Numbered from the stretch's first letter, positions 37,594-54,613 are shown. The stretch: DNA of 64,000 nucleotides from Anaerolineae bacterium (GCA_024653325.1 JANLFX010000001.1:10228-74227); one strand, 5' to 3'. A program made the numbers and translations. Notes: generated from the letters alone by a model not told the origin.

Positions 37594-37609
37594 GAGGAGG
37601 GTGGGTCAT

Positions 37610-37638
37610 GTGCGACGCACCTCTCAGGTGCGTCGCAC
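37610..37638 (+). terminator. GC hairpin GTGCGACGCACCT-ctca-GGTGCGTCGCAC after hdrA2
   Basis: 12-13 bp perfect stem 17 nt after the TGA. No U-tract. Confidence 0.45.
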
Positions 37639-37661
37639 GTGACAAATGTGAGTGAGACCTT

Positions 37662-37731
37662 TGTCAACGAATGGCGAAACGAATAAACGAATGTCGGACC
37701 ATGCGTTTATTCGTTGGCTATTCGTTGACAG
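37662..37731. repeat. Palindromic CGAAT-iteron element family 2, copy 2
   Basis: TGTCAACGAATGGCGAAACGAATAAACGAATG...TTTATTCGTTGGCTATTCGTTGACAG. More than 85% identical to 6842-6921. Confidence 0.65.
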
Positions 37732-37797
37732 AGCATGGCGAGCCGGGATGGCGGACAGGGCCGTCCGCCGCTACACCTCTCGCTTGAGGAGCGAAAC

Positions 37798-38331: not shown

Positions 38332-39185
38332 GGTATTCCTATTATCCGGGTTGCACTTTAAGCTCGACCGGCGTAGAATATGGGCAGTCGGTGGCCGCGG
38401 TCTGTGAGGTGCTGGGCATTGAGCTGGTGGAGCTGGAGGACTGGAGCTGTTGTGGCTCCTCCTCGGCCCACGCCCTGGACCACGAACTGGCTCTCAGCCT
38501 GCCGGTGCGCAACATCGCCCTGGCCCAACCGGCTGGAATGGATACCCTCATGCCCTGCCCGGCCTGCTACCAGCGGACGTTGCGCGCCGACAGGCGTCTG
38601 CGCGAGGATGAGGCCTGGCGTCGGGAGATGGAAGCGCTGTTGGGCTTTGCCTACGACGGCCAGGGCCGCCCTCGCCATCTGCTGGACGTGCTGGGACACG
38701 ACCTGCCGGCGGAGGCTATCTCCTCCCGCGTGCGGCGTCCGCTGAAGGGGCTCAAGCCGGTCAGCTACTACGGCTGTATGCTCGTCCGCCCACCCAAACT
38801 CACCGGCTGGGACGACCCTGAACATCCCGTGCTCATGGATCGTCTGCTGAGCACTCTCGGCGCGGAACCGGTGGTCTGGTCCTATGGCGTGGACTGTTGC
38901 GGGGGTAGCTTGTCCTTGGACCGCAGCGATGTGGTCAAGACCCTGGTGGGCCGCCTGGCGACTGCCGCTGCGGAGGCGGGGGCCAATTGCATCGTCACCG
39001 TCTGTGGCATGTGCCACATCAACCTGGACACGCGCCAACAGGGCACGCAAATGCCCGTCTTTTATCTGACCGAGTTGATGGGCCTGGCCCTGGATTTGCC
39101 GGGACAGGAGCAATGGTTTAATAAGCATTTTATCAATCCGCTGCCGTTATTGGCATCGCTGGGGTTGGTGGGGCAGCGGCGTTAA
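38328..39185 (+). CDS. hdrB: HdrB-like CCG-domain protein, second copy
   Basis: GTG start overlapping the hdrC2 stop. Motifs DWSCCGSSSAHAL and GVDCCGGSLSL. Confidence 0.8.
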   Translation: MRYSYYPGCTLSSTGVEYGQSVAAVCEVLGIELVELEDWSCCGSSSAHALDHELALSLPVRNIALAQPAGMDTLMPCPACYQRTLRADRRLREDEAWRREMEALLGFAYDGQGRPRHLLDVLGHDLPAEAISSRVRRPLKGLKPVSYYGCMLVRPPKLTGWDDPEHPVLMDRLLSTLGAEPVVWSYGVDCCGGSLSLDRSDVVKTLVGRLATAAAEAGANCIVTVCGMCHINLDTRQQGTQMPVFYLTELMGLALDLPGQEQWFNKHFINPLPLLASLGLVGQRR

Positions 39186-39803: not shown

Positions 39804-40085
39804 TTGGGTTACCGCCGTCTATTGGGAGGGAGACCCGTGTCACAAGCCAATGTGAAATTGACGATTCCCTTCGAGTCGCTGGTTGAATCCATCACCAGGC
39901 TGGGCCTCAAGGAGAAACTCCGGCTTTGGCAATTGCTCACCGAGCAAATCGCCCAGCTAGAGGAAGAGCTATGGGAGCAGGACCCAATTGCTCAGGCCGA
40001 GATTCGGGAGGCACGCGAGGCCTACCAGGCTGGGGACTATGTGACCATTGATGAGTACCTTGCCCGTCAGCAGAGCAAAAGCTGA
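39804..40085 (+). CDS. Putative antitoxin of a RelE/ParE-type toxin-antitoxin pair
   Basis: Small acidic ORF with a TTG start at 39804 or GTG at 39837, each after a GGGAGG box. Its stop overlaps the toxin ATG (TGATG). Confidence 0.45.
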   Translation: MGYRRLLGGRPVSQANVKLTIPFESLVESITRLGLKEKLRLWQLLTEQIAQLEEELWEQDPIAQAEIREAREAYQAGDYVTIDEYLARQQSKS

Positions 40086-40347
40086 TGAATTACCAGGTCC
40101 TCGTCCCCAAGCCGGTGCAAAAACATTGGATGGTTTGCCCGAAAACGTACGCAGGCGGATTATTCAGCGAATCGTGGCATTGAAAGAGAACCCACGTCCA
40201 CCAGGGTCTGTCAAATTGAAGGGTTACGAGAACGAGTACCGAATCCGCGTGGGCGACTATCGGGTGAGATACGAAGTTTGGGACAACGAGGCCGTTGTAC
40301 TGTTGCTGCATTGCGGGCATCGGAAAGATGTGTACAGGCGGCGCTGA
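40085..40347 (+). pseudogene. RelE/ParE-family toxin gene with a 1-nt frameshift in an A5 tract
   Basis: ATG 40085 gives MNYQVLVPKPVQK, a typical RelE N-terminus. The remainder, TLDGLPENVRRRIIQRIVALKENPRPPGSVKLKGYENEYRIRVGDYRVRYEVWDNEAVVLLLHCGHRKDVY, is in the -1 frame. The frames meet in CAAAAAC at 40117-40123, and one extra A would restore an 87-aa protein. Confidence 0.55.
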
Positions 40348-40381: not shown

Positions 40382-43300
40382 TTGGGTTCCGAGAGCGACA
40401 GCGTTGTCAGATCGGATTCAGTGGTAGGTGCCGTATTGGTCGTCGGCGGCGGCATCGGGGGCATGCAGGCCGCGTTGGACCTGGCTGGCGCCGGCTTCAA
40501 GGTCTATCTGCTGGAGGAGAAGCCAGCCATCGGCGGCATCATGGCCCAGTTGGACAAGACTTTCCCCACCAACGACTGCGCCATGTGCATCATGTCCCCC
40601 AAGCTGGTGGAATGTGGCCGCCACCTGAATATCGAGATCATCACTGGTGCCGAGTTGCAGGAACTGCGTGGCCAGCCGGGCAATTTCACCGCCGTGGTGC
40701 ATCAGCGGGCCAGGTTTGTGGACCTGGACAAGTGCACCGGCTGCGGCGATTGCGCCCAGGCCTGCCCGGTGAAATTGCCGGACCTGTTTAACGCTGGCCT
40801 GGCGGAGCGTAAGGCCATCTACAAGCTCTACCCGCAGGCCACGCCTAACGCCTACGCCATCGAGAAACGGGGCACCTCCCCCTGCCGCCATGCCTGCCCT
40901 ATCCACCAGCGGGCCCAGGGCTACATCGCCCTCATCCGCGAACAGCGATACGCGGAGGCCTATCGCGTCATCAAAGAGGATAACCCCTTCCCCGCCATCT
41001 GTGGCCGCATCTGTAACCACCGCTGCGAGGATGAGTGCTCCCGCAACAAAGTGGACGAGCCAATTTCCATTATGGCCCTCAAGCGCTTCGTCGTTGACCG
41101 GGTGCAGGATATGGAGCGCGAGCCCATCACTCCCCCGCAGCGCATCCACGAGGAGCGCATCGCCATTGTCGGTTCCGGTCCGGCGGGGCTGACCGCCGCC
41201 CACGATCTGGTGAAAATGGGTTACGGGGTCACCGTCTTCGAGGCGCTGCCCGTGGCGGGGGGGATGATGCGCGTCGGCGTGCCCGAGTACCGCCTGCCCG
41301 CCAAGTTGATCCAACGCGAGATTGACGACATCCTGGCCCTGGGAGTGGAGCTCAAACTCAACACCCGCGTGGACGATGTGGACGCGCTGCTCAAGGACGG
41401 CTACGCCGCCGTGTTCCTGGCGGTGGGCGCGCACCAGGGCCGCAAGCTGCGCATTCCAGGGGCCGATTTGCCCGGCGTGCTGCTCAACACCGATTTTCTG
41501 CGCCAGGTGCGCCTGGGCGAGCGACCGGCGTTGGGCGAGCGGGTGTTGGTGCTGGGTGGCGGTAACGTGGCCGTGGACGTGGCCCGCACGGCGGTGCGCC
41601 TGGGGGCCAAAGAGGTGTACATGAGCTGCCTGGAAGGCCGCGAGAGTATGCCCGCCCATCCCTGGGAGATCGCCGAGGCCGAGGAAGAAGGGGTGCGCAT
41701 CTTTCCCGGGCGTACCTTCAAAGAAATCGTGGCCCGCGACGGTCGGGTGGCGGGGGTGCGCTGCTGGGAGGTGGACTTTCGCGGTTTCACCGCCGATGGC
41801 CGCCTGGACATGGACGAGTTCCCGGAGACAGAGCACATCATCGAGGCCGACACCGTCATCTTCGCCATCGGCCAAATGCCGGACCTGAGACTGCTGGGCG
41901 AGGACGGTCAGATCAGGATGACGCGACAGCGTACCATCGAAGTTGACCCGGAGACGCTGGTCACGGGCAAGCCGGGGGTCTTCGCCGGCGGGGACGTGGT
42001 GACAGGCACGGCTTTTGTGGTGGAAGCTATCGCCGCCGGACACAAGGCGGCCCGTTCCATTGACCGCTTCCTGCGGGGTGAGGAACTGGGCGCGCGCGAG
42101 CCGGTCCTGCAGCCCAAAGTCGAGCTGAGCGCGGAGGAGATTCGGGAGCGGCTGGAGCAGGGGGACATCGTGCCCCGGCCCCGGGCGCGAGCGCGCAATC
42201 TGCCCGTGGAAGAGCGCGTTAACAACTTCTGTGAGGTGAGCCTGGGTCTGAGCGAAGAGGAAGCTCTGGCGGAGGCGCAGCGCTGTCTCTCCTGCGGGAT
42301 TTGCTCCGAATGTCTGGAGTGTGTTTACGCCTGTAAAGCTGGGGCCGTGAACCACGAGATGACGGACCAGGTCCGCGAGTTGAACGTGGGGGCCGTGATC
42401 CTCACCCCCGGCGTGGAGCTCTTCGACGCCCGTCTCAAGGGCGAGTACGGTTACGGCTATTATCCCAACGTGGTGACCAGTATCGAGTTCGAGCGCATCC
42501 TCTCCGCCTCGGGGCCTTTCGGCGGGCACGTGCAGCGTCCTTCGGACGGCAAAGAGCCAAAGCGCATCGCCTGGTTGCAATGCATTGGCTCCCGCGACGC
42601 GGCCTGTGGGCAGGATTACTGCTCCGCCGTGTGTTGTATGTACGCCATCAAAGAGACCATCATCGCCAAAGAGCACCTGCCTGGCGTGGAGACGACGGTC
42701 TTCTTCCTGGACATCCGCGCCTTCGGCAAGGACTTCGACAAGTACTATGAGACAGCCAGGACCCGGCATGGGGTGCGTTTTATCCGCAGCTTTGTCTCCT
42801 CGGTGAAGCAGGTGCCGGGCACGAAGAACCTGCGCATCACCTACGTGGGCGAGGACGGGGAACTGCGCGAGGAGGAGTTCGACCTGGTGGTGCTCTCCGT
42901 CGGGCTGCGGCCCACGGCATCGGCGCAGGAGATGGCTCGTCGGCTGGGGTTGCAGCTCAATCGCTTCGGCTTCTGCGAGAGCGAGGCTTTCGCCCCCACG
43001 GAGACGACGCGGCCCGGCGTGTTCGTCGCCGGGGCCTTCGGCGAACCGAAGGACATCCCGGAGACGGTGGTAGAGGCTTCCTGCGCGGCAGCCCATGCCT
43101 CGCGTTTGCTGGCCCCTGCGCGCGGCACGTTGACGCGGGTCAAAGAGTACCCGCCAGAGCGGGATGTCTCCGATGAGGAGCCGCGTGTGGGCGTTTTCAT
43201 CTGTCATTGTGGCATCAACATCGGCGCCGTGGTGGACGTGCCCCAGGTGGTGGAGTACGCTAAGACGCTGCCCGGGGTGGCCTATGCCGAGCACAATCTC

Positions 43301-44869
43301 TACACCTGCTCTCAGGACACGCAGCAGCGCATCAAGGAGCGCATCGAGGAGTACGGGCTGAACCGCGTGGTGGTGGCTTCCTGCACGCCGCGCACTCACG
43401 AGCCCCTGTTCCAGGATACGCTCCGCGAGGCCGGGCTGAACCCTTACTTCTTCGAGATGACCAATCTGCGCGAGCAGGATTCGTGGGTGCACCGTGCTTT
43501 TCCGGAACTGGCCACGCTCAAGGCCAAGGAGCTGGTGCAGATGGCGGTGGCCAAAGCGCGATGGCTGCGGCCCTTACCCCGCCTGCGTTTCGACCTGGTG
43601 CACAGTGCCCTGGTCATCGGCGGGGGGCTTTCCGGGATGACGGCGGCGCTGTCCATCGCCGACCAGGGCTATCCGGTGCATCTGGTGGAACGGGAGCCGG
43701 AGCTGGGCGGTCATCTGCGGCATATCCACTACGGCCTCGGCGAAGAGGACCCTCAGCGTCTGTTGCGCGAGACCATCGCGCGCGTGGAAAGCCATCCGCG
43801 CATCCATGTTTACAAGAACAGCGAGATAACGGACATCTCCGGCTACGTGGGCAAGTTCCAGACCACGCTGGCTTCCATGGACGGCCAGCAGACCACGGTG
43901 GAGCATGGGGTGGTAGTGGTGGCCACGGGGGCCAAAGCGGTGGAGCCGACCTCGTATTTGTACGGCCAGGACGAGCGGGTGCTGACCCAAGTGGAGCTAG
44001 AGGAGCGATTGGCCCAGAAAGACGGGTCGCTGGCTCAGGCGGACACGGTGGTCATGATCCAGTGCGTGGAGTCCCGGGACGAGCAACGCCCCTATTGCAG
44101 CCGCATCTGCTGTTCGCAAGCCATCAAGAACGCGCTGCGCCTCAAGGAGTTGAACCCGCGGGCCCGCGTCTACGTCCTTTACCGCGACATTCGCGCCTAC
44201 GGCTTCCGTGAGCTATACTACCAGCAGGCTCGCCAGGCGGGAGTGGTCTTCCTCCCATATGACGCGGAGGACAAGCCCCGTGTGGAAGTGGCGGATGGGC
44301 GGCTACGGGTAGAAGCGACCATGGTGGGCATGGTGGGCATGGCGGGTGAGGTGCTGACGTTGGAGCCCGATTACCTGGTCCTCAGCACCGGCATTGAACC
44401 GGGCGACAACAGCGCGCTGGCCCAGTTGTTGAAGGTGCCTCTCAACGAGGACGGTTTCTTCCTGGAGGCGCATGTCAAGCTGCGGCCTCTGGATTTCGCC
44501 GTGGACGGGGTGTATTTGTGTGGCCTGGCCCATTCCCCGAAGTCGGTTGAGGAGTCCATGGCCCAGGCCCACGGGGCAGCCATTCGGGCAGTGACCATGC
44601 TCTCCCGCGAGTACATCGAGACCCCGGGCACGGTGGCCACCGTCAATGAGCGGCTGTGCAGCGGCTGCGGGTTGTGCGTCGCCGCCTGTCCCTACGACGC
44701 GCGCCGGATAGATGAGGAGCGGCACATCGCTGAGGTCATCACCGTGCTCTGCCAGGGATGCGGGGCCTGCGTGGTGGCCTGTCCCAACGGAGCCAGTCAG
44801 CACCTCGGTTTCGAAATGCGGCAGGAATTGGCTAAAATAGATGCGGCGCTGAGTTATGCGGAGGCGTGA
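40382..44869 (+). CDS. Giant fusion oxidoreductase: an HdrA-like FAD domain split by a GltD/NfnB-like NAD(P)H-flavin module, followed by a second complete HdrA-like unit
   Basis: 1495 aa with a TTG start after AGAGGTG. HdrA FAD motif VVGGGIGGMQAALDLAGAGF. Ferredoxin CTGCGDCAQACP. GltD-type CRHACPIH...GRICNHRCEDECSR and IAIVGSGPAGLTAAHDL. Also CLSCGICSECLECVYAC and CIGSRD...YCSAVCCMY. The second unit has VFICHCGINIGAVVDV, LVIGGGLSGMTAALSIADQGY and a C-terminal CSGCGLCVAACP...CQGCGACVVACP. Confidence 0.75.
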   Translation: MGSESDSVVRSDSVVGAVLVVGGGIGGMQAALDLAGAGFKVYLLEEKPAIGGIMAQLDKTFPTNDCAMCIMSPKLVECGRHLNIEIITGAELQELRGQPGNFTAVVHQRARFVDLDKCTGCGDCAQACPVKLPDLFNAGLAERKAIYKLYPQATPNAYAIEKRGTSPCRHACPIHQRAQGYIALIREQRYAEAYRVIKEDNPFPAICGRICNHRCEDECSRNKVDEPISIMALKRFVVDRVQDMEREPITPPQRIHEERIAIVGSGPAGLTAAHDLVKMGYGVTVFEALPVAGGMMRVGVPEYRLPAKLIQREIDDILALGVELKLNTRVDDVDALLKDGYAAVFLAVGAHQGRKLRIPGADLPGVLLNTDFLRQVRLGERPALGERVLVLGGGNVAVDVARTAVRLGAKEVYMSCLEGRESMPAHPWEIAEAEEEGVRIFPGRTFKEIVARDGRVAGVRCWEVDFRGFTADGRLDMDEFPETEHIIEADTVIFAIGQMPDLRLLGEDGQIRMTRQRTIEVDPETLVTGKPGVFAGGDVVTGTAFVVEAIAAGHKAARSIDRFLRGEELGAREPVLQPKVELSAEEIRERLEQGDIVPRPRARARNLPVEERVNNFCEVSLGLSEEEALAEAQRCLSCGICSECLECVYACKAGAVNHEMTDQVRELNVGAVILTPGVELFDARLKGEYGYGYYPNVVTSIEFERILSASGPFGGHVQRPSDGKEPKRIAWLQCIGSRDAACGQDYCSAVCCMYAIKETIIAKEHLPGVETTVFFLDIRAFGKDFDKYYETARTRHGVRFIRSFVSSVKQVPGTKNLRITYVGEDGELREEEFDLVVLSVGLRPTASAQEMARRLGLQLNRFGFCESEAFAPTETTRPGVFVAGAFGEPKDIPETVVEASCAAAHASRLLAPARGTLTRVKEYPPERDVSDEEPRVGVFICHCGINIGAVVDVPQVVEYAKTLPGVAYAEHNLYTCSQDTQQRIKERIEEYGLNRVVVASCTPRTHEPLFQDTLREAGLNPYFFEMTNLREQDSWVHRAFPELATLKAKELVQMAVAKARWLRPLPRLRFDLVHSALVIGGGLSGMTAALSIADQGYPVHLVEREPELGGHLRHIHYGLGEEDPQRLLRETIARVESHPRIHVYKNSEITDISGYVGKFQTTLASMDGQQTTVEHGVVVVATGAKAVEPTSYLYGQDERVLTQVELEERLAQKDGSLAQADTVVMIQCVESRDEQRPYCSRICCSQAIKNALRLKELNPRARVYVLYRDIRAYGFRELYYQQARQAGVVFLPYDAEDKPRVEVADGRLRVEATMVGMVGMAGEVLTLEPDYLVLSTGIEPGDNSALAQLLKVPLNEDGFFLEAHVKLRPLDFAVDGVYLCGLAHSPKSVEESMAQAHGAAIRAVTMLSREYIETPGTVATVNERLCSGCGLCVAACPYDARRIDEERHIAEVITVLCQGCGACVVACPNGASQHLGFEMRQELAKIDAALSYAEA

Positions 44870-44913
44870 AACGTGAGAACGTGAAACGCGAAACGTGAAG
44901 CGTAAAACGTAAG
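44864..44913. repeat. Degenerate tandem repeat (GTGAAACG-like unit, about 6 copies) overlapping the stop of the giant hdrA gene
   Basis: GTGAAACGTGAGAACGTGAAACGCGAAACGTGAAGCGTAAAACGTAAG. Confidence 0.75.
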
Positions 44914-44921
44914 GGGGCACA

Positions 44922-46478
44922 ATGTCCGGAAAATACATCATCGCCCACGATGTGGGCACGGGTGGCAGTAAGGCCGTGTTGATTGACACGGAAGCGAACG
45001 TGTTGGGCAGCATCTTTGAGCCCTATCCGGTGTATTATCCTCGCTCGGATTGGGCGGAACAGGACCCGGAAGACTGGTGGCGGGCAGTGACGGGCAGTAC
45101 CCGGCAACTGCTGGAGAAATACGATGTCCGGCCAGAGGATGTGCTGTGTACCACTTTCACCACGCAAATGCTGGGCATCTTACCCATGGACGAAGCGGGC
45201 CAGTGTTTGCAGCGAGCGATCATCTGGCTGGATGCGCGCGGCGGACGACAGGCCAGGCGGGCAATGCGTCGCCTGTTGCATCCCGGTATTTTCGCCGCTG
45301 TGGCCGGGGCGCGGCTCTCCGGCAAGGACTGGATCCCCAAGATATGGTGGCTGCGGGAGAACATGCCGGGGCTTTATGCGCAGACGGCCAAAATTCTCGA
45401 CGTGAACGGCTATCTGTTGTATCGGGCCACGGACGAGATGGTGATTGACTGGACTGAAGCTTCCGTGACCGGGATGTTTGACCTGGGTAAAAAGACCTGG
45501 GACCCGCTGATTATCTCATTGTTCGGTCTGCCGCTGGAGAAAATGCCGGAGCTGAAAAGCCCTGTGGAAACTGTGGGCGCCGGATTGACGGCCGAGGCCG
45601 CGCACGAGTTCGGGTTACTGGCCGGTACACCGGTGATCGCCGGAGCAGGGGATGCACTGACTGCGGCAGTGGGTTCGGCGGCAGTGGAGGAAGGGGATCA
45701 ACACGTATACCTGGGCACTTCCAGTTGGATAGGGGTGATTATCGGCAAGAAAGTTACCGGTAAAAGCGGCATCGCCACCATCCAGGCTGCCGATCCGACT
45801 AAGAATTTCCTGTATGCCGAGAACGAAACGGCTGGCGCGTGTCTCAAGTGGATTGCTGACGAGTTTTACCGCGCCGAGCAGGCGGACCCGACAATAGAAA
45901 ACGTGTACGCGCTGATGGATGCCGATGTGCAACGCATTGAACCTGGTTCCAACTATCTTATCTTCACCCCGTGGATGTACGGCGAACGGGCACCGATTGA
46001 CGACATCTACGTCCGCTCTACTTTCTTTAACTTGAGCGCGGACCACAAACGTGAGCATCTGCTGCGGGCAGTGTATGAAGGAGTAGCCTACAACTTGCGC
46101 TGGGCCTTTGACCTGCTTAGCCAGAAGTTTCACCACTGGCAGGATACCGTGCGCATCGTCGGCGGTGGGGCGCGGGGCGATCCCTGGCTGCAAATCATCG
46201 CCGACGTGACGAAAAAGCACGTGGAACGGGTGGCCAATCCGCAGGAGGCCGGGGCTGTGGGCGCGGCGATGGTTGCCGCCATCGGATTGGGCATCTATCC
46301 CGATTTCTCTTCGCTCAAGAAAGTGGTGAAGGTCACTGATGTCTTTGAACCGCAGGAGTGCAATGAGGATATATACGATCGCCTTTACCAGGGATACAGG
46401 CAGGTGTACAAGGCTCTGCGCAAGTTGTACCGCAGGATTAACGAAGAGAGGTTCCGTGGGACGGAAGTGAGTGGGTAG
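44922..46478 (+). CDS. FGGY-family carbohydrate kinase
   Basis: 518 aa with the N-terminal IIAHDVGTGGSKAVLID and a C-terminal FGGY_C region (GGGARGDPWLQIIADV). Confidence 0.8.
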   Translation: MSGKYIIAHDVGTGGSKAVLIDTEANVLGSIFEPYPVYYPRSDWAEQDPEDWWRAVTGSTRQLLEKYDVRPEDVLCTTFTTQMLGILPMDEAGQCLQRAIIWLDARGGRQARRAMRRLLHPGIFAAVAGARLSGKDWIPKIWWLRENMPGLYAQTAKILDVNGYLLYRATDEMVIDWTEASVTGMFDLGKKTWDPLIISLFGLPLEKMPELKSPVETVGAGLTAEAAHEFGLLAGTPVIAGAGDALTAAVGSAAVEEGDQHVYLGTSSWIGVIIGKKVTGKSGIATIQAADPTKNFLYAENETAGACLKWIADEFYRAEQADPTIENVYALMDADVQRIEPGSNYLIFTPWMYGERAPIDDIYVRSTFFNLSADHKREHLLRAVYEGVAYNLRWAFDLLSQKFHHWQDTVRIVGGGARGDPWLQIIADVTKKHVERVANPQEAGAVGAAMVAAIGLGIYPDFSSLKKVVKVTDVFEPQECNEDIYDRLYQGYRQVYKALRKLYRRINEERFRGTEVSG

Positions 46479-46529
46479 GGAACACGTCCCGTACATAGAG
46501 AGTGAAAAGGATTTAAGGAGAGTGTGACT

Positions 46530-47834
46530 ATGCTTACAGGTGTTGACGTTAAGTCGCTGCCGTTGGCGCTGCCCGATGGTGTGGATTACGACGAATACAT
46601 CATCGGCACGTATTTGGTGTCCTATCCGAAGAAGATTTCCGTGCCCAAAATGGCCCCGGCCCTGGCCATCGAGCAGAGCACGGGGACCTGGGTACCCGTT
46701 CCAGGGGAGACGCCGGAAGTGCGCCGTAAGCATGTGGCCAGGGTCATCGGGGTGTACGAAGTGCCCGATTACGAGTATGGGCTACCGCCGGAGGTGGAGG
46801 AGCGCACTTACGTCATCCAGATCGCTTTCCCGGTGGTCAACATCGGCGCGCAGATACCGATGCTGCTGACTACCGTCATCGGCAATATCTCCATGGCCGG
46901 CAAGCTCAAGCTGGTAGACGTGCGCTTTCCCAAGAAGTACGTGGACGGCTTCAAAGGGCCGAAGTTCGGCATCCCTGGCGTGCGTCAAATACTGGGCGTC
47001 CCCAAGCGACCGTTGTTGAATAACATGATCAAGCCTTGCACCGGGTACACGCCGGAGGTTGGCGTGGAACTGTTCCGGGCGGCGGCGCTGGGTGGCTGCG
47101 ACATTATCAAAGATGACGAACTGCTGGCCGATGCCTCGTTCAACCGCGTGCTGGCCCGGGTCAAGTTGTACATGGAGGCCGAACGCCAGGTTTACGAGGA
47201 AACCGGCGAACACACTTTGTACACGGTCAACGTTTCCGATGAGATTCCCCAGGTGTTCGAGAACGCCAGGCGGGCGGTGGAGCTGGGTTGCAACGCGATC
47301 ATGGTCAACTTCCTGGCCGTGGGCCTCCCCGTACTACGGGCCCTGGCCGAGGACCCGGCCATCAACGTGCCCATTCTCGCGCATATGGATGTGGCCGGCG
47401 CGTTTTATGAATCGCCGTGGCACGGGATCAGCTCGCACATCGTGCTGGGCAAGCTGCCGCGTCTGGCCGGAGCCGACATCGTGGTTTTCCCCGCACCATA
47501 CGGCAAGGCTCCCGTGCTGCCGGAGAAGTTCGTGAACGTGGCCAAGAATCTGAGCTTCCCATTGTATAACCTGAAACCGGCTTTTCCCATGCCCAGTGGA
47601 GGTATTACCCCGGCCATGGTGCCGCAGGTGATCAAAGACTTGGGGACTGAGATCGTGATTGGGTCAGGTGGAGGCATCCACGCTCACCCGCACGGGCCCA
47701 TCGCCGGAGCCAAAGCCTTCCGCCAGGCTATTGATGCTACCATGCAAGGGCGTCCGCTGGAGGATGCGGCGGCCGAATTTGAGGAGCTGCGCGTGGCGTT
47801 GGAAACCTGGCAGGAACCGTTTATTTCATTCTGA
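46530..47834 (+). CDS. RuBisCO-like protein (form IV RuBisCO large-subunit homolog)
   Basis: ATG 46530 lies 9 nt after AAGGAG. The track GTG at 46524 is too close to the SD. Large-subunit fold motifs PCTGYTPEVGVELFRAAALGGCDIIKDDE. Lacks a canonical carboxylase context. Confidence 0.7.
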   Translation: MLTGVDVKSLPLALPDGVDYDEYIIGTYLVSYPKKISVPKMAPALAIEQSTGTWVPVPGETPEVRRKHVARVIGVYEVPDYEYGLPPEVEERTYVIQIAFPVVNIGAQIPMLLTTVIGNISMAGKLKLVDVRFPKKYVDGFKGPKFGIPGVRQILGVPKRPLLNNMIKPCTGYTPEVGVELFRAAALGGCDIIKDDELLADASFNRVLARVKLYMEAERQVYEETGEHTLYTVNVSDEIPQVFENARRAVELGCNAIMVNFLAVGLPVLRALAEDPAINVPILAHMDVAGAFYESPWHGISSHIVLGKLPRLAGADIVVFPAPYGKAPVLPEKFVNVAKNLSFPLYNLKPAFPMPSGGITPAMVPQVIKDLGTEIVIGSGGGIHAHPHGPIAGAKAFRQAIDATMQGRPLEDAAAEFEELRVALETWQEPFISF

Positions 47835-47854: not shown

Positions 47855-48508
47855 ATGTTAGTCTATGATCGAATGAGCCGCCATCCTATCACTGTAAATC
47901 CTGATGTGCCTATTGACGAAGCCCTGCACATTATGCGCGAGAACAAAGTGCGCCGTCTGCCGGTGGTGGATAAGCAGGGCAAACTGGTGGGTATCGTCTC
48001 GGAAAAGGATCTGCTGTATGCGTCACCCTCACCGGCCACCTCGCTCAGCATCCATGAGATCCACTACCTGGTCTCCAAGATCAAGGTCGCCGACGTGATG
48101 ACCAAAGAGGTGATCACCGTTGGGGAAAATGCCCCCCTGGAGGAAGCGGCACGGATCATGGCCGATCACAAGATCGGTGGCTTGCCGGTCATGCGCGACG
48201 GAACGCTCGTCGGTATCATCACCGAGACAGACCTGTTCAAAATCTTCCTCGAGCTGCTGGGGGCGCGGGAAGAGGGAGTGCGGCTGACGATGTTGATACC
48301 TGAACGGCCCGGCACACTGGCAACCATCACCCGTAATATTGCCGAAATGGGTGGCAATATTGTTTCACTGGGCACGTTCCTGGGTGAGGATCCTACCAAC
48401 CGTCTGATCACCGTCAAGGTGGCGGGCGTGCCCCAGGAAGAACTGGTGCGCAACATGACAGCGCTGGGCATGGAAATCGTAGACGCGAGGATGTGCCAGC
48501 GCTGTTAG
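47855..48508 (+). CDS. CBS-pair plus ACT domain protein
   Basis: Two CBS motifs, HPITVNPDVPIDEALHIMRENKVRRLPVV and VMTKEVITVGENAPLEEAARIMADHKIGGLPVM, and a C-terminal ACT-like segment. Confidence 0.75.
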   Translation: MLVYDRMSRHPITVNPDVPIDEALHIMRENKVRRLPVVDKQGKLVGIVSEKDLLYASPSPATSLSIHEIHYLVSKIKVADVMTKEVITVGENAPLEEAARIMADHKIGGLPVMRDGTLVGIITETDLFKIFLELLGAREEGVRLTMLIPERPGTLATITRNIAEMGGNIVSLGTFLGEDPTNRLITVKVAGVPQEELVRNMTALGMEIVDARMCQRC

Positions 48509-48665: not shown

Positions 48666-49088
48666 ATGTCCGAATTTGAGCCGCGCATAGTTGCCTTTCT
48701 GTGCAACTGGTGTACCTACACCGGCGCAGATCTGGCCGGCACCTCACGCATTCAATACCCGCCCAACGTGCGCATCATCCGTCTGATGTGTTCCGGGGGA
48801 TTAGACCCCATCTACGTGACCAAAGCCCTGCTGGAAGGGGCCGACGGCGTGCTTATCGGGGGTTGCCATCCGGGAGATTGCCACTATCAAAGCGGTAACT
48901 ACAAGGCCAGGCGGCGGGTGGCTATTCTCAAAAGCATCCTGGAGCAATTGGGCTTCGATCCCGACCGGGTGTGGCTGCGATGGATCAGTGCCAGCGAGGG
49001 CCAATACTTCGCCGAGACGGTGACGGAGATGGTCGCTGCCCTGAAGGAAAAGGGGCCCAATCCTATGCGCAATCTATGGGGTATGTGA
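48666..49088 (+). CDS. mvhD: MvhD/FlxD-like iron-sulfur protein (methyl-viologen-reducing hydrogenase delta-subunit family)
   Basis: VAFLCNWCTYTGADLAG...IRLMCSGGLDP...GADGVLIGGCHPGDCHY. Confidence 0.75.
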   Translation: MSEFEPRIVAFLCNWCTYTGADLAGTSRIQYPPNVRIIRLMCSGGLDPIYVTKALLEGADGVLIGGCHPGDCHYQSGNYKARRRVAILKSILEQLGFDPDRVWLRWISASEGQYFAETVTEMVAALKEKGPNPMRNLWGM

Positions 49089-49107
49089 GAATCACCGAGG
49101 TAGAAAT

Positions 49108-50238
49108 ATGCCGCTAAACGCTGTGCTTGAGGTCGAAGATAACATACTGGCCACCCTGGACACTTTCCTGCGAGGTCTTTTGGAGCACGGGGTAGTGGAG
49201 TACTTGCTAGTGCCCCAGGCAACATTGGCCGGTGATAATGTGGTACAAACGCTGGTGCACGATATGTCGCGCTTGCAGGCGGTGAATCCGGTGGCTCCGG
49301 TCTTGCCCGTCAATTCCGCCAAGCTGGTCTCTAAGTTGACGGTCAAGGGCGCGCCACGCCCGGTAGGGGTTGTGTTGCGCACCTGCGAACTCCGTGCTTT
49401 GGTGGAACTGGTCAAGTTGCAGCAGGCCAGCCTGGAGAACGTGACGGTCATCGTCGTGGACTGCCTGGGCACATACGAGGTGGCCGATTATGCTGCTTTG
49501 GTAGCGGCAGGCTGCGATCCCACGGCGGAGTTGTTGGCTCAGGTGAGGGATGGTGACCTGCATCCTCATGGAGGCTACAGCTTCCGTGCGGCCTGTCAGA
49601 TGTGCGAGTATCCTGTGCCCGATGTGGCGGATGTGCATGGGCCGGATATTCACCTGGGCTTGTTGGGCATGGATGGGCGGGTGTTGGTGACGGTGCGCGA
49701 TGACCTAGCGGAGCCTTTGGGATTGACACCGACCGCGATACCGGAGGGACGCAAGACCGTGGTCGAGGAGTTGATCCGCCGGCGGGCAGCCGAGCGCGAC
49801 CGGCGTTTCGCCGAGTTCCGCTCCCGGGTGAACGATGTAGAGGGTCTGTTGGCCCAATTTTCCACCTGCATTCGCTGTCACAACTGCATGGTAGCCTGTC
49901 CCATTTGCTACTGCAAGGAGTGTATTGCGCGCACAACTACTTTCGATCACGAGCCACGCCAATATTTTGAGTGGGCGGAACGGAAGGGCGTTGTGCGGAT
50001 GCCGGTGGATACCCTTATGTTCCACCTCACCCGCCTGAACCACATGGCGACCTCGTGCGTGGGCTGTGGCATGTGCACCAGCGCCTGCCCGAATGACATT
50101 CCGGTGAGCACGATTTTCCGTGCTGTCGGCGAGAAAGTGCAGGCTATTTTCGACTATGTTCCGGGGCGCAGTCTGGAAGAAGAGCTGCCCCTGGCGACGT
50201 TCCGCGAGGATGAGTTGACGGAGCTTGGAGAAAAATAG
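49108..50238 (+). CDS. FrhB/FdhB-family Fe-S flavoprotein-like subunit (F420-hydrogenase beta-like) with a C-terminal 2x[4Fe-4S] ferredoxin
   Basis: CIRCHNCMVACPICYCKEC and CVGCGMCTSACPNDIP. The N-terminal part has the FrhB_FdhB_N-like pattern. Confidence 0.6.
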   Translation: MPLNAVLEVEDNILATLDTFLRGLLEHGVVEYLLVPQATLAGDNVVQTLVHDMSRLQAVNPVAPVLPVNSAKLVSKLTVKGAPRPVGVVLRTCELRALVELVKLQQASLENVTVIVVDCLGTYEVADYAALVAAGCDPTAELLAQVRDGDLHPHGGYSFRAACQMCEYPVPDVADVHGPDIHLGLLGMDGRVLVTVRDDLAEPLGLTPTAIPEGRKTVVEELIRRRAAERDRRFAEFRSRVNDVEGLLAQFSTCIRCHNCMVACPICYCKECIARTTTFDHEPRQYFEWAERKGVVRMPVDTLMFHLTRLNHMATSCVGCGMCTSACPNDIPVSTIFRAVGEKVQAIFDYVPGRSLEEELPLATFREDELTELGEK

Positions 50239-50251
50239 TGGGGAGGTTATC

Positions 50252-50932
50252 ATGTCCGAGGAACTGATTCCGATTTACATCATGGGTAAACAATACATGG
50301 TGCCGCCTACATTGACGATTATGAAAGCTATGGAGTATGCCGGCTATCAGCTAATTCGAGGTGTGGGCTGCCGGGGCGGGTTCTGCGGAGCCTGCGCTAC
50401 AGTATATCGTCTGCCCGGCGATTATCGTTTGCAAATTGGCCTGGCCTGCCAGACCGTGGTCCAACCGGGCATGTACCTGGCGCAGATTCCCTTTTTCCCG
50501 GCGCAACGGGCGGCCTATCGTTTGCATGAACTGCAACCCACTTTCCAGACGTTATTCACCCTTTATCCGGAACTGATGCGTTGTCTTAGCTGCGGTACCT
50601 GCACCAAAGCATGTCCGCAGGACATTGATGTCAAGCAATACATGGCCGATGCCATGCGCGGCGACATCCACGCCGTGGCCGATCGCTCTTTCGATTGCAT
50701 CATGTGCGGGTTGTGCGCTGCTCGCTGCCCGGCTGAGGAAGCACAGTACAACATCGCTATTCTCTGCCGCCGCTTGTACGGCAAATATCTGGCTCCTAAA
50801 GCGAAGCACCTACTCGAACGGGTAAAAGAGGTTGAAGAAGGGAAGTGGGATGCAGCAGTGGAGGAATTGAAGGGCCTGAGCGAGGAAGAACTGCGCAAGC
50901 GGTACAATGCGCGAGATATAGAGCCGGAATGA
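50252..50932 (+). CDS. Succinate dehydrogenase/fumarate reductase iron-sulfur subunit
   Basis: ATG 50252 follows GGGGAGG. The N-terminal 2Fe-2S region is GVGCRGGFCGACA. C-terminal clusters are CLSCGTCTKACP and CIMCGLCAARCP. Confidence 0.8.
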   Translation: MSEELIPIYIMGKQYMVPPTLTIMKAMEYAGYQLIRGVGCRGGFCGACATVYRLPGDYRLQIGLACQTVVQPGMYLAQIPFFPAQRAAYRLHELQPTFQTLFTLYPELMRCLSCGTCTKACPQDIDVKQYMADAMRGDIHAVADRSFDCIMCGLCAARCPAEEAQYNIAILCRRLYGKYLAPKAKHLLERVKEVEEGKWDAAVEELKGLSEEELRKRYNARDIEPE

Positions 50933-50948
50933 GATAGGAGACGGGGAC

Positions 50949-52559
50949 ATGAGTTACACAGCGGAGATGCGGGAATCCATAAAAAGAGTAGAGGCTACCC
51001 GGCCTGCACGTCTTTCGGAAACGTGGCCGATGATGAGCCCCGCCGAGAAAAAGGAAATCCTGGAAAAATTCCATCCCGACTACATCCGCGAGGGGATGCG
51101 CGAGATCCGCGTCGGGGTGAGCAAGGGCCAGCGTATGCCGCTGGAATTGGCTGAGGTGATGGAAGGGCACAGCCATTTGCGCTCCGATAGCCTGGATTTG
51201 GAGCAGATTGACTACGACACCGACGTGCTGGTCATCGGCGGGGGCGGGGCGGGGGCCTCGGCGGCCATATTGGCCCGCGAGAACGGGGCGAAAGTCGTTT
51301 TGACCACCAAGTTGCGCTTTGGTGACGCCAATACCATGATGGCTCAGGGGGGCATCCAGGCCGCGGATAAGCCCAACGACTCGCCAGCCATCCATTATCT
51401 GGACGTGATGGGCGGCGGGCATTTCGCCAATGTGCCGGAATTGGTGGAGGCGTTAGTCAAAGACGCACCGCTGGTGATCAAATGGCTGGAAGATCTGGGT
51501 TGCATGTTCGACAAGGAGCCCGACGGCACGCTGGTCACCATCCACGGCGGTGGCACTTCTCGAAAACGGATGCACTCCGCCCGCGATTATTCCGGGGCAG
51601 AGATCATGCGCACCCTGCGCGACGAGGTGCGTAGCTATCCCGAGGACATCGTTGTCCTGGAGTTCTCTCCGGCCATCGAGCTCATCCTGGACGATAAGGG
51701 CCAGTGTGCTGGCGCGGTGCTCAAGAATCTGGAGACTGGTGAGCATTTGATAGTCCGGGCCAAATGCACGATTGTAGCCACCGGCGGCAGTGGACGGCTT
51801 CACTATCAGGGTTATCCCACCACCAACCACTACGGGGCGACCGGTGATGGCGTTGTGCTGTGCTACCGGGTGGGGGCGAGGCTAGCCTTTTTGGACACGA
51901 TGCAGTATCATCCTACTGGCGCAGCCTATCCGGAGCAAATCTTGGGCCTTTTGGTGACGGAGAAAGTGCGTGGGTTGGGCGCGCAGGTGTGCAATGTGGA
52001 GGGCAAACAGTTTGTCAATCCTCGGGAGACACGCGACGTAGAGGCCTCCGCTTTCATTCGGGAGTGTGTGGAGCGAGGCAAAGGCGTGCGCACGCCATCA
52101 GGGATGCAGGGGGTGTGGCTGGATTCGCCGATGATTGACATCATACATGGGCCGGGCACTATTGAGGCTGAGCTGCCGGCCATGGTTCGCCAATTTGGCC
52201 GCTTTGGTATTGACATAACTAAAGAGCCTATGTTGGTTTATCCTACTCTGCACTACCAAAATGGCGGTATCGCCTTGGATGTGCATGGTCGGACCAATGT
52301 TCCCAATTTATTCGTCGCCGGGGAAATCTCTGGCGGGGTGCACGGCCGCAATCGTTTGATGGGTAACTCTTTGCTGGAGATCACGGTATTCGGACGACGG
52401 GCAGGGCGGGCGGCTGCTTTGCAAGCCAAAGAGGTCAGTTTGGGTAAGCTCACCCTGGCCCACCTGGACAAATGGGAGCGCGAGCTGAAAGAAGCGGGGG
52501 TGGAACCCAAAATCGTCTCCCCCATTCTCTTGCCGGACTATACCCGCAAGGTGCGTTGA
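50949..52559 (+). CDS. Succinate dehydrogenase/fumarate reductase flavoprotein subunit
   Basis: FAD motif VLVIGGGGAGASAAILARENGAKV, plus MAQGGIQAA, VAGEISGGVHGRNRLMGNSLLE and an HPT-loop region. Confidence 0.85.
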   Translation: MSYTAEMRESIKRVEATRPARLSETWPMMSPAEKKEILEKFHPDYIREGMREIRVGVSKGQRMPLELAEVMEGHSHLRSDSLDLEQIDYDTDVLVIGGGGAGASAAILARENGAKVVLTTKLRFGDANTMMAQGGIQAADKPNDSPAIHYLDVMGGGHFANVPELVEALVKDAPLVIKWLEDLGCMFDKEPDGTLVTIHGGGTSRKRMHSARDYSGAEIMRTLRDEVRSYPEDIVVLEFSPAIELILDDKGQCAGAVLKNLETGEHLIVRAKCTIVATGGSGRLHYQGYPTTNHYGATGDGVVLCYRVGARLAFLDTMQYHPTGAAYPEQILGLLVTEKVRGLGAQVCNVEGKQFVNPRETRDVEASAFIRECVERGKGVRTPSGMQGVWLDSPMIDIIHGPGTIEAELPAMVRQFGRFGIDITKEPMLVYPTLHYQNGGIALDVHGRTNVPNLFVAGEISGGVHGRNRLMGNSLLEITVFGRRAGRAAALQAKEVSLGKLTLAHLDKWERELKEAGVEPKIVSPILLPDYTRKVR

Positions 52560-52586: not shown

Positions 52587-52602
52587 GCGGCATTCATGCC
52601 GC
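52587..52602. terminator. Bidirectional hairpin GCGGCATTCATGCCGC between convergent frdA and flavodoxin genes
   Basis: Perfect 16-bp palindrome that overlaps the flavodoxin stop codon. Confidence 0.45.
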
Positions 52603-53124
52603 TATAGTTCCTTCTTCAGCCTTCAGCGTATCAGCAATGGCCGCGGCCCAAGAGTTGATGGCTTCCCAGTCACGGAAGTCGCCGACCGGTGCTTTGATGC
52701 CCTTGACGAGCAGCTTCTCGGTTAGGCTGAGTTTCTTTGTATCCAACATGCCGTGGAATAAGGCGACGTCACGGGGGCGGATGCGGTCGGCGACGGGCTG
52801 TTGCGCCTCGGGGAAGCGCCAGCCTTTCACCAATTGTACCGCATCCCCCTCGCCCGTAGGTCCGCTGGAAAAGAGCCATACCAGCCGCTCGGCCAGTTTC
52901 TTCTCGTTAGCCTCCAGAAATTTTGCCGCCTCCTTACGCCATTGGCCTACGTAGACCGCGCTACCCAGCACCACCGCCTTGTACGGGCTCAGGTCGCCGA
53001 CACGATCCACCGGCAGCACGTCGGCATGGAAACCCGCCTCACGAAGCACCTGACCGATCTTTTCGGCAATCTCCGCCGTCGCACCATACTTGGTGGCGTA
53101 GGCCACCAGAACCTGAACGTCCAT
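52594..53124 (-). CDS. Flavodoxin
   Basis: ATG 53122-53124 is preceded by AAGGAGGAG with a 6-nt spacer. The track start at 53145 lies upstream of that SD. N-terminal FMN-binding motif VLVAYATKYGATAEIAEKI. Confidence 0.8.
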   Translation of the reverse strand: MDVQVLVAYATKYGATAEIAEKIGQVLREAGFHADVLPVDRVGDLSPYKAVVLGSAVYVGQWRKEAAKFLEANEKKLAERLVWLFSSGPTGEGDAVQLVKGWRFPEAQQPVADRIRPRDVALFHGMLDTKKLSLTEKLLVKGIKAPVGDFRDWEAINSWAAAIADTLKAEEGTIAA

Positions 53125-53260
53125 TTGATTCTCCTCCTTATGCATCTACAAAAGTCTTCGCTTTCTCACCCTTTATGCGCCTGTTTTATCCTCTCGTCAA
53201 TGCAGGGGGCGCATTTCACATGCTCCACGTCATACTCGGCGAGCAACTGCCCGAACCTGG

Positions 53261-54613
53261 TCAGGGTGTCCTCTTGGTAGCGGCGTCGGTGATCTCCAAC
53301 GCTTGGTCAATAATGGTCAGGCCTTCTTTGAGCTGCGCCTCGGTGATGCACAACGGCGGCACGACGAAAATCCAGTTCCAGCGGACGAAGGTGTAAAGCC
53401 CATTGTCGCGCAGGAATTTGGACACCTCGGCCATGGCCCCCATCTCTGAGGGCCTGGCGTTCCAGGGAGCCATCGGCTCCTTGGTCTCTTTGTCCTTGAC
53501 CACCTCGATCACCGAGAACAGACCAATGTAGCGCACGTCGCCCACCGAAGGATGCCTGGCCTTCATGGCCTCCAGTTCTTCGCCTAACACCCGGCCCATG
53601 GCTCTGGCATTCTCAATCAGCCCGTCCTCTTTGTAGACATTGATGGTGGCTATAGCGGTGGCGCAGGCCAGAGCGTGACCGCTATAGGTCAGTCCCAGGG
53701 GCAACATCCGCTCCTCGAAATAATCGGCGATGTCCTGGGAGACGACTACCGCTCCCAGTGGCACGTAGGCCGAGGTCAGGCCCTTGGCCATGGTCATGAT
53801 GTCAGGCACGACCCCCCAATGGTCAATGCCGAACCACTCCCCGGTACGCCCGAAGCCGCTCATCACCTCGTCGTCCACCAACAGGATGCCGTACTTGTCG
53901 GCGATCTCGCGCATACGTGGCCAGTACTCGTCGGGATAAATCATGATGCCGCTGGAACCGGTGACGCCCTCCAAAAAGATGGCGGCCACGTTCTCCGGCC
54001 CTTCGAACTGGATGACCTGCTCCACGTGGTCAATGCACTCCCGGTGACAGGTCTCCAGCGTCCAGCCAAAGGGGCAGCGGTAACAATAAGGGTCCATCAC
54101 GTGGATAACGCCGGGGATGGCCGGTTCCACCGGCAGCCGGCGCGGATCGCCCGACAGGGCAATCGCCCCATAGGTCGCCCCATGATAAGACCGATAGCGG
54201 GCGATGATCTTGTGGCGTCCGGTGTACAGGCGAGCCAGCTTGATGGCGTTGTCATTCGCCTCGGCCCCACCCAGCACGAAGAAGCTCTTCTTCAGGTTGC
54301 CCGGCGTGATCTCGGCCAGTAACCGCCCCAGTTCGCCCTTCACATCGGTAGCCATACCCGGATAAACATAGCACAACCTGTCAGCCTGGTCTTTGATGGC
54401 CTGCACGATTCTGGGATGCTGATGTCCGGCGTTGACGTTCATGAGCTGAGAAGCGAAATCAATGTAGCGTTTGCCGTCCACGTCCCAGAAATAAACCCCC
54501 TTGGCCCGCTCTACGGGGATGGGGTTGACCGCTGCCTGCACCGACCAGGAAAAAAAGACATACTCCCGGTTCAGAGCGACGATCTCTGCGGCACTCAGTT
54601 TAGTGGAATGCAT
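53261..54613 (-). CDS. Class III pyridoxal-phosphate aminotransferase (omega-aminotransferase family)
   Basis: 450 aa with motifs GHQHPRIVQAIKDQ and DEVMSGFGRTGEWFG, and the PLP-lysine region MTMAKGLTSAYVPLGAV. Confidence 0.8.
   Translation of the reverse strand: MHSTKLSAAEIVALNREYVFFSWSVQAAVNPIPVERAKGVYFWDVDGKRYIDFASQLMNVNAGHQHPRIVQAIKDQADRLCYVYPGMATDVKGELGRLLAEITPGNLKKSFFVLGGAEANDNAIKLARLYTGRHKIIARYRSYHGATYGAIALSGDPRRLPVEPAIPGVIHVMDPYCYRCPFGWTLETCHRECIDHVEQVIQFEGPENVAAIFLEGVTGSSGIMIYPDEYWPRMREIADKYGILLVDDEVMSGFGRTGEWFGIDHWGVVPDIMTMAKGLTSAYVPLGAVVVSQDIADYFEERMLPLGLTYSGHALACATAIATINVYKEDGLIENARAMGRVLGEELEAMKARHPSVGDVRYIGLFSVIEVVKDKETKEPMAPWNARPSEMGAMAEVSKFLRDNGLYTFVRWNWIFVVPPLCITEAQLKEGLTIIDQALEITDAATKRTP

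Follow-up and report, generated by a model that had tools for sequence, protein, structure and literature searches.

A conserved gene pair of an FGGY-family kinase and a form IV RuBisCO-like protein in Anaerolineae and other lineages

What is a sugar kinase gene doing directly upstream of a gene for a RuBisCO-like protein (RLP)? The question is raised by a stretch of 64,000 nucleotides from an Anaerolineae bacterium (GCA_024653325.1 JANLFX010000001.1:10228-74227), here called the window, in which the interval 44922-47834 runs exactly from the start of a kinase open reading frame (ORF) to the stop of an RLP ORF. Few functions are known for RLPs, the reactions described being those of an enolase, a 1,3-isomerase, a decarboxylase/transcarboxylase and an oxygenase (PMC10176493), and recent large surveys of RuBisCO treat RLPs as a collapsed outgroup (PMC13454268). 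The clade of the RLP in question is common in metagenomes and shows very strong conservation. We propose, with a probability of roughly 0.6, that the pair provides a conserved kinase-to-RLP step in the uptake and catabolism, or in the salvage, of a small sugar-like and probably aminated compound.

Conservation of the kinase-RLP pair

An earlier note on this DNA, made from the sequence of the window, had described an FGGY sugar kinase immediately upstream of a form IV RLP. Both genes were recovered as adjoining full-length ORFs (Table 1), and the Pfam E-values of the kinase (FGGY_N, 4.4e-50; FGGY_C, 1.3e-29) and of the RLP (RuBisCO_large, 3.9e-44; RuBisCO_large_N, 4.9e-10) exceed chance by far. 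The intergenic gaps are 52 nt between the hdrA-like gene and the kinase gene, 45 nt between the kinase and RLP genes (39 nt to an ATG at 46530) and 20 nt between the RLP gene and the next gene, which encodes a CBS/ACT protein. An AAGGAG ribosome-binding site lies 9 nt ahead of ATG 46530, and an identical public protein of 434 aa (NCBI MCR4405339.1 / MDH7472725.1, from an Anaerolineae metagenome-assembled genome (MAG)) begins at this codon. Because the ribosome-binding site spacing and the public model agree, the true RLP start is probably ATG 46530 and not the GTG that gives 436 aa. A GGAGG ribosome-binding site was also present inside the 20-nt gap ahead of the CBS/ACT gene. A promoter/terminator scan found no terminator-like site between the kinase, RLP and CBS/ACT genes; its counts were no higher than in shuffled sequence, and it is uninformative on operon limits beyond this missing intergenic terminator. 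The kinase and RLP genes are probably co-transcribed, and so, probably, are the RLP and CBS/ACT genes.

A scan of one genome per species gave 154 loci encoding a relative of the RLP, and the best 80 of the 154 were analyzed. Their RLPs are 70-95% identical to that of the window, and their hosts belong to three Chloroflexota classes (Anaerolineae, Thermoflexia and Dehalococcoidia) as well as Candidatus Cryosericum and one Tissierellales MAG. A locus was taken as informative for the pairing if 300 nt or more of sequence lay upstream (76 of 80). A kinase orthologue was found upstream of the RLP gene and on the same strand in 72 of these 76, with a median gap of 51 nt (150 nt or less in 57 of the 72 paired loci), and only one locus among those with ample flank was without it. 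The kinase orthologues are 47-85% identical in most loci and ~40% identical in L062 and L065. These results indicate that the kinase-RLP pairing is real and old. Given its retention in 72 of 76 loci, we infer an uncharacterized pathway in which the RLP would act on a kinase-made phosphorylated substrate. No paper describing an FGGY-linked RLP was found in a literature search. In L003, L005, L006, L008 and L009 (Thermoflexales and Anaerolineae MAGs), an ORF of 300-490 aa lies between the two genes, giving a gap of 1-1.5 kb; its product is rich in Ala/Glu/Arg coiled-coil-like repeats (e.g. AEAQARTEA) and ends in a distinct C-terminal domain.

The kinase belongs to the FGGY family, with both domains present and the ATP-binding and catalytic motifs intact (phosphate-1 motif DVGT at residue 10, GDALT of the catalytic Asp region at 243, GGGA at 414). 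Its best NCBIfam match was XylB (TIGR01312), which at 323.5 bits stayed below the cut-off of 380.25. The next matches were GntK (gluconokinase, 266 bits), LsrK (autoinducer-2 (AI-2) kinase, 192 bits) and GlpK (glycerol kinase, 186 bits), and NF011601 gave 199.2 bits against a cut-off of 912. The nearest solved structures, 3ifr and 2itm, were matched with E-values of only ~1e-51 (2itm, 1.1e-51). By these scores, the kinase is xylulokinase-like but no XylB equivalog.

Active site and family placement of the RLP

The RLP was assigned to the RuBisCO superfamily by its N-terminal alpha/beta and C-terminal TIM-barrel domains, as seen with Pfam and in a fold model (TM score ~0.7). This AlphaFold model was built from a shallow alignment, reached a mean local confidence (pLDDT) of 68.7 and was used for fold assignment only. 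The RLP was then aligned with spinach RbcL (sequence verified as identical to PDB 8RUC/1IR1), two MtnW enzymes and members of its own clade. Fifteen RuBisCO active-site residues were found to be kept, here given in spinach numbering with the 436-aa numbering of the RLP in brackets: E60 (E50), T65 (T55), W66 (W56), N123 (N121), K175 (K170), K201 (K196), D203 (D198), E204 (E199), H294 (H287), K334 (K328), S379 (S358), G380 (G359), G381 (G360), G403 (G382) and G404 (G383). K175, K201, D203 and E204, the positions singled out in the earlier note, are thus all retained. The large-subunit signature GGCDIIKDDE, which the same note had reported, was located at residues 190-199; it holds the activation and metal site, formed by the carbamylatable K196 together with D198 and E199, three residues that are invariant in the clade. 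On the other hand, six positions are replaced (T173M, K177C, R295M, H298A, H327V and L335A in spinach numbering). The pattern of kept and replaced residues was common to 25 of 25 sampled relatives, except for one Gly at the L335 position.

The residue set of a bona fide RuBisCO is therefore incomplete in this protein, K177, R295, H298 and H327 all being substituted, and the form III model scored 255.7 bits against a cut-off of 497.45. Because R295, H298 and H327, the distal-phosphate ligands of ribulose 1,5-bisphosphate (RuBP), are lost together with K177, canonical RuBP binding is impossible and a canonical RuBisCO is ruled out. By residue content and model scores, the protein is a form IV RLP, as had been claimed from the sequence of the window, and belongs to an uncharacterized clade beside the YkrW/MtnW group. 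Its catalytic site appears competent for Mg2+/carbamate enolization, with neither a second phosphate site nor an MtnW-type base.

MtnW is the nearest characterized family by score, which raises the possibility that the RLP is an MtnW-type 2,3-diketo-5-methylthiopentyl-1-phosphate (DK-MTP-1-P) enolase of a variant methionine or 5-deoxyribose salvage. The FGGY kinase would then replace MtnK (acting on methylthioribulose or 5-deoxyribulose), and an aminotransferase would make the final amino acid. The RLP matched G. kaustophilus MtnW with 317 bits (E 2.2e-93), the best structural matches of its model were MtnW structures (TM score ~0.7, with 39% identity in the structural alignment), and its apolar distal pocket resembles that of MtnW. 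Members of the clade are labeled as MtnW enolase by the Joint Genome Institute (JGI), and in one distant relative (P0145, see below) the FGGY kinase has an aminotransferase and a HAD phosphatase for company, a set that recalls MtnE, MtnK and MtnX. However, both MtnW models missed their cut-offs (NF007095, 397.2 versus 409; TIGR03332, 350.8 versus 513.6). Moreover, Lys98 of G. kaustophilus MtnW (FGK), which Imker and colleagues reportedly identified in 2007 as the catalytic general base of this enolase, aligns with Asn121 (IGN) of the RLP and is Asn in every sampled clade member, while G60 and S334 of MtnW are replaced with E and K; at all three positions the RLP is like RuBisCO. These replacements make the JGI label doubtful, and the name MtnW is probably wrong for this clade. 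A search for MtnA, MtnB, MtnK, MtnX and MtnD homologues, which covered the window and the recurrent neighbor clusters of the 80 loci, found none, and an Rfam scan of the window and four loci gave no S-adenosylmethionine riboswitch. In addition, the hosts are mostly strict anaerobes, in which the O2-dependent MtnD step cannot run. Taken together, a salvage enolase of the MtnW type is unlikely.

The relationships of the RLP were also examined more widely. A search among 1.84 billion cluster representatives gave 2163 relatives. The nearest of these (P0121 to ~P0151, 41-58% identity) mostly have E60, N123, K175 and K334, with C or K at 177, and they group beside MtnW-type sequences (G60, K123, S334) in a neighbor-joining tree calculated without support values. 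The representative nearest to OiaX, the decarboxylase of D-apionate catabolism, was P0212 (524 bits, below the cut-off of 700), which also keeps E60, N123 and K334. OiaX-like proteins keep R295 and H327, whereas the RLP of the window does not. Among 94 non-canonical representatives, E60 co-occurred with K334 (Fisher p=5e-5) and N123 with K334 (p=5e-6), both values being uncorrected for phylogeny. The E/N/K trio is thus kept in true carboxylases and in the OiaX-like decarboxylase relative, but lost in the MtnW enolase. Its retention hints, without proving it, that the RLP handles a carboxyl group or CO2.

The gene contexts of these distant relatives were compared. In P0123 the order is GntR, Fe-ADH, RLP, Zn-ADH, FGGY kinase and sugar ABC transporter, and in P0134 the RLP gene stands with those of an AP_endonuc_2 sugar isomerase (TIM barrel) and an FGGY kinase. 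P0126 combines an amino-acid-type ABC transporter, the RLP, an FGGY kinase, a class II aldolase nearest to ribulose-1-phosphate and fuculose-phosphate aldolases, and an aminotransferase resembling family c5 described below. P0145 has a 2-hydroxyacid dehydrogenase, the RLP, a class I/II aminotransferase, an FGGY kinase and a HAD protein. A c5-like aminotransferase also adjoins the RLP in P0121, on an archaeal-looking contig with a TrmB gene; P0136 has a sugar isomerase, a Zn-ADH and the RLP, and in P0127 the RLP lies within a cluster of GlpA/GlpB/GlpC-like dehydrogenase genes. In these contexts, with their FGGY kinases, polyol dehydrogenases, sugar isomerases and aminotransferases, the kinase-to-RLP logic recurs, probably with different substrates.

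Recurrent partners and the proposed function

Neighbor families of the 80 loci were counted by tblastn with cluster representatives. Three enzyme families recurred beside the pair. The first, c5, is a class-III pyridoxal phosphate (PLP) enzyme encoded directly upstream of the kinase in 17 Anaerolineae and Thermoflexia loci, and its nearest solved relatives are class-III amino-acid racemases/epimerases and GABA aminotransferases. The second, c4, is a class-III enzyme like glutamate-1-semialdehyde aminomutase, present in 11 loci including those of Cryosericum and Tissierellales. The third, c2, is a saccharopine-dehydrogenase-like protein (Sacchrp_dh family); its gene directly follows that of the RLP in 29 loci of Dehalococcoidia, and its nearest solved relatives, by weak matches, are saccharopine and carboxyspermidine dehydrogenases. 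The three families are mutually exclusive, exactly one of them being present in 57 of 80 loci, and many of the remaining loci are truncated. Judged by family membership, their common denominator is amine/carbonyl interconversion. Moreover, transporters (two MFS clusters and DUF401) adjoin the pair in 16 loci. These partners suggest that the substrate is aminated or amino-acid-linked rather than a plain sugar acid. The earlier note had pictured an uncharacterized small-sugar or sugar-acid pathway. The genome-context comparison bears out the kinase pairing on which that idea stood, but the recurrent amine/carbonyl enzyme and the transporters, which the note had missed, point away from a plain sugar acid. 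On contig DAOTVU010000021.1 (L079/L080), the kinase-RLP-c2 segment occurs twice in inverted orientation, with c2 at 2221-3441 (+) and 8344-9564 (-) and a partial minus-strand RLP; such a palindrome may have arisen as an artefact of assembly.

Based on these data, the following scheme is proposed for an amino-group-linked compound of about C4 to C6. In the relatives, an MFS or other transporter would import the compound, and c5, c4 or c2 (the last an NAD(P) enzyme) would interconvert amine and carbonyl; no such gene lies beside the pair of the window. The XylB-like FGGY kinase would then use ATP to phosphorylate a terminal hydroxymethyl group of the resulting keto-sugar or keto-acid sugar, giving a monophosphate. 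The RLP would hold this single phosphate at the proximal site, made up of T55 and W56 (from the partner subunit), G360, G382 and G383, and bind Mg2+ through carbamylated K196, D198 and E199. An enediolate would be formed by a RuBisCO-like C3-type deprotonation, involving the carbamate with K170 and H287, and not by the C1 deprotonation carried out by Lys98 in MtnW. The distal site is predicted to be apolar (M288, A291, V321, A329, C172 and M168), and because these residues replace the distal-phosphate site, the substrate is presumably no bisphosphate, and its tail would be short or non-polar. Since the E50/N121/K328 trio is shared with RuBisCO and the OiaX-like relatives and lost in MtnW, a carboxyl or CO2 fate of the enediolate is favored, such as transcarboxylation or the loss of CO2 from a phosphorylated beta-keto acid; simple keto-isomerization follows closely in likelihood. 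As product, a ketose-phosphate or triose-phosphate of central metabolism would be expected. Relative to the pair, the amine/carbonyl enzyme and the transporter may act earlier, if an aminated compound or hydroxy-amino acid is broken down, or later, if salvage leads to an amino compound. In this lineage alone, the CBS/ACT protein may provide local control in response to a metabolite. AI-2/P-DPD, 1-deoxyxylulose, erythrulose, 2-oxo-tetronate, 5-deoxyribulose and Amadori compounds were considered as substrates and set aside, as the data do not discriminate among them.

Several observations weigh against this scheme. The window itself is without c5, c4 or c2, and its own class-III enzyme (Table 1), weighed as a candidate for the absent partner, is only 31% identical to c5 and falls into another NCBIfam subfamily. 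The kinase of the window shares only 29-34% identity with the FGGY kinases that accompany distant relatives of the RLP, and thus the latter kinases may have been recruited independently, for other substrates. The amine/carbonyl step could stand first in a catabolic route or last in a salvage or biosynthetic one, either direction being possible. The case for carboxyl chemistry draws on a correlation uncorrected for phylogeny and on a representative (P0212) below the OiaX cut-off. The pocket geometry is not readable from the model, in which pLDDT is below 50 at residues 322-357 (loop 6) and in the segment 288-306, and the tree has no support values. Finally, the function as a whole is deduced from sequence and gene context.

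A second alternative takes the trio further and regards the RLP as a true carboxylase of a ketose monophosphate, with the FGGY kinase in the role of phosphoribulokinase (PRK). The residues for activation, enolization and CO2 addition are invariant (carbamylated lysine KCX201, D203, E204, K175, H294, N123 and K334, together with E60), and the alterations are confined to the distal-phosphate ligands, K177 and T173. The kinase gene lies directly upstream, as does that of PRK in many cbb operons, and the high RLP identity given above is maintained across classes. However, K177 and H327, which contribute to catalysis in RuBisCO, are both lost, and since OiaX-like decarboxylase relatives also keep the trio, carboxylation is not proven by it. 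The transporter, regulator and aminotransferase neighbors look catabolic, and we know of no monophosphate carboxylase in the RuBisCO superfamily. We therefore regard it as improbable that the clade is a working or reversible (de)carboxylase of a kinase-made ketose or keto-acid monophosphate, forming a RuBP-free two-step module for CO2 handling. If this were true, the clade would be intermediate between RLPs and true RuBisCO in residue content, and a PRK/RuBisCO-like module without RuBP would be widespread in anaerobic Chloroflexota.

Genomic setting and comparison with known systems

The kinase-to-RLP step proposed here is encoded amid Hdr-like and fumarate-related genes (Table 1), a setting that the earlier note had found odd. 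The CBS/ACT gene, which that note had counted with the pair as a regulator, is a real neighbor with two CBS stretches and an ACT domain (Pfam CBS, 3.1e-40; TTHA0829-like ACT, 9.1e-08). However, L002 is the only one of the 80 related loci that also has it, L001 and the other 78 being without it, and it is thus a lineage-specific neighbor outside the conserved module. The HdrA-like fusion contains three FAD/NAD-binding regions (~18-66, 254-553 and 1076-1185), a Fer4_20 domain (DPD domain II) and a C-terminal 4Fe-4S dicluster.

Table 1. Genes of the pair, its surroundings and other window features discussed in the text
Feature	Coordinates	Strand	Remarks
FGGY-family carbohydrate kinase, xylulokinase-like	44922-46478	+	518 aa, complete; Pfam FGGY_N, FGGY_C
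RuBisCO-like protein (RLP)	46524-47834	+	436 aa from GTG; Pfam RuBisCO_large, RuBisCO_large_N
CBS-CBS-ACT small-molecule-binding protein	47855-48508	+	217 aa; two CBS stretches and TTHA0829-like ACT
HdrA-like fusion	40382-44869	+	1495 aa
HdrB/C-like proteins	33599-39185		
Class I fumarate hydratase	31628-33046		
MvhD, two Fe-S proteins, TfrA/FrdA-like flavoprotein	48666-52559		
Class-III aminotransferase family protein	53261-54613	-	NF004718 572.6 versus cut-off 472 (above); 5.4 kb downstream of RLP
Pyrimidine-nucleoside phosphorylase	16356-17660	-	568.7 bits versus cut-off 559; only Glycos_transf_3 protein of the window
Purine-nucleoside phosphorylase	6978-7832	+	371 bits

This setting raises a third alternative, that the pair is functionally tied to the Hdr/MvhD/flavoprotein genes, for example by supplying or removing a phosphorylated substrate of the TfrA/GlpA-like flavoprotein. 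Hdr-like and FrdA-like genes stand on both flanks with no terminators between, the RLP gene is followed by the MvhD/Fe-S/Fe-S/FrdA-like block also in L001 and L002, and the RLP gene of P0127 lies within its GlpA/GlpB/GlpC-like cluster. However, among the 80 loci this association was found only in the window and these two closest relatives. In L002, moreover, c5 and not hdrA lies upstream of the kinase gene, and a nucleotidyltransferase/HEPN-like pair is inserted between the kinase and RLP genes (L002 3028-3958). In the window, a small ParE-toxin gene (40048-40347, +) with an overlapping 93-aa ORF ahead of it, the likely antitoxin (pair spanning 39804-40347), lies between a GNAT acetyltransferase gene and the hdrA-like gene. 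The insertion of toxin-antitoxin modules here in both the window and L002 suggests a rearrangement-prone spot. These results indicate that the Hdr/fumarate embedding is local; the island noted earlier is real but probably incidental, and a functional tie to it is highly improbable. The 52-nt gap between the hdrA-like and kinase genes is filled by a 7-nt tandem repeat (44865-44910; consensus CGTGAAA, 6.4 copies, 82% matches). Because L002 has its c5 gene at this place, the repeat may be the scar left by a deletion or rearrangement, or else serve as a regulatory site.

As the earlier note had stated, the pair is without cbb or methionine-salvage company: no cbb, PRK, AMP phosphorylase or mtn genes were found among the ~40 scanned ORFs of the window, and no ribose-1,5-bisphosphate isomerase. 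The protein at 16356-17660 was tried as an AMP phosphorylase and rejected (AMP_phos, 267.7 versus a cut-off of 535), and neither it nor the one at 6978-7832 is an AMP or 5'-methylthioadenosine (MTA) phosphorylase. The last alternative, a bona fide form III RuBisCO of an AMP/nucleoside pentose-bisphosphate pathway, could appeal to the large-subunit signature, the many catalytic residues and the nucleoside phosphorylase, but is refuted by the replacements T173M, K177C, R295M, H298A and H327V and by the form III score, and the phosphorylase is of the pyrimidine-nucleoside type, 29 kb off and on the other strand, in a window where no PRK or ribose-1,5-bisphosphate isomerase was found.

Downstream, the class-III aminotransferase gene is flanked by genes for Flavodoxin_5 and AllH-like (oxamate carbamoyltransferase subunit) proteins, at 52594-53145 (-) and 54783-55835 (-). 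Farther on, a 1320-aa membrane protein with a PMT-type glycosyltransferase, NHL repeats and a bacterial Ig domain is encoded at 55721-59683 (-), and a DUF2298 membrane protein at 61468-63963 (-), the former being reported upstream of the latter. The AT skew climbs sharply over the window end that holds the 55721-63963 genes.

In automatic annotation, the RLP clade is routinely given the name MtnW or that of "ribulose 1,5-bisphosphate carboxylase". Chloroflexota, Dehalococcoidia and further subsurface lineages can, by such labels, falsely appear to salvage methionine or fix CO2. Together with an amine/carbonyl enzyme, the kinase and the RLP form a concrete three-enzyme system that could be reconstituted in vitro. 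Moreover, because the trio is kept and the second phosphate site lost, the clade is a test case for carboxylase versus RLP chemistry in RuBisCO evolution.

The preferred reading, a kinase-to-RLP step on a monophosphate, can be compared with several known systems. The kinase shares its two-domain architecture and conserved ATP and catalytic motifs with XylB (E. coli 2ITM) and other FGGY kinases, but it falls under the XylB equivalog cut-off and forms its own orthologous group, which co-occurs with the RLP clade. PRK with form I-III RuBisCO offers the same layout of a kinase gene directly upstream of a RuBisCO-family gene, and the 15 active-site residues are shared; however, the FGGY kinase is unrelated to PRK, and there are no cbb genes by the pair of the window. 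MtnW/YkrW (2OEK from G. kaustophilus, 2ZVI from B. subtilis) shares with the RLP the K201/D203/E204 triad, K175 and H294, and it acts on a monophosphate substrate with a distal phosphate site of small or apolar residues, as in the RLP. In contrast, the RLP has Asn for Lys98 and E/K for G60/S334, it is paired with an FGGY kinase and not with MtnK, and mtn neighbors are lacking.

The DeepYkr-type structure 3QFW was matched by the RLP with an E-value of only 3.5e-33; the PDB matches of the RLP representative P0154 yielded no DeepYkr reference. The RLP of R. rubrum is a 5-methylthioribulose-1-phosphate 1,3-isomerase of the MTA-isoprenoid shunt, according to the account in PMC10176493 of Imker 2008 and Erb 2012. 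It carries out an enediolate-based keto migration on a ketose monophosphate with an apolar other end, and it yields an analogue of xylulose-5-phosphate, a compound of the kind expected from an XylB-like kinase. No MtnP, MtnA or cupin gene was seen in the neighborhoods of the loci related to the window.

The apiose, erythronate and threonate pathways, which the earlier note had put forward as models, use DUF1537 kinases. They do not serve as direct models for this pair, since the RLP scored 187.8 bits against the OiaX cut-off of 700, which places it in another RLP clade. The OiaK-OiaX step of D-apionate catabolism, in which a kinase is followed by an RLP that acts as 3-oxo-isoapionate-4-phosphate decarboxylase (Carter et al. 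2018, as cited in PMC10176493), nevertheless follows a like logic, in which a dedicated kinase gives a monophosphorylated keto compound that is handled by an RLP via an enediolate. The differences are that the RLP of the window lacks R295 and H327, its kinase is of the FGGY family, and amine/carbonyl enzymes accompany the module in its relatives. By analogy, the kinase-RLP module would work like the OiaK-OiaX step, yet it belongs to neither the OiaX nor the MtnW family.

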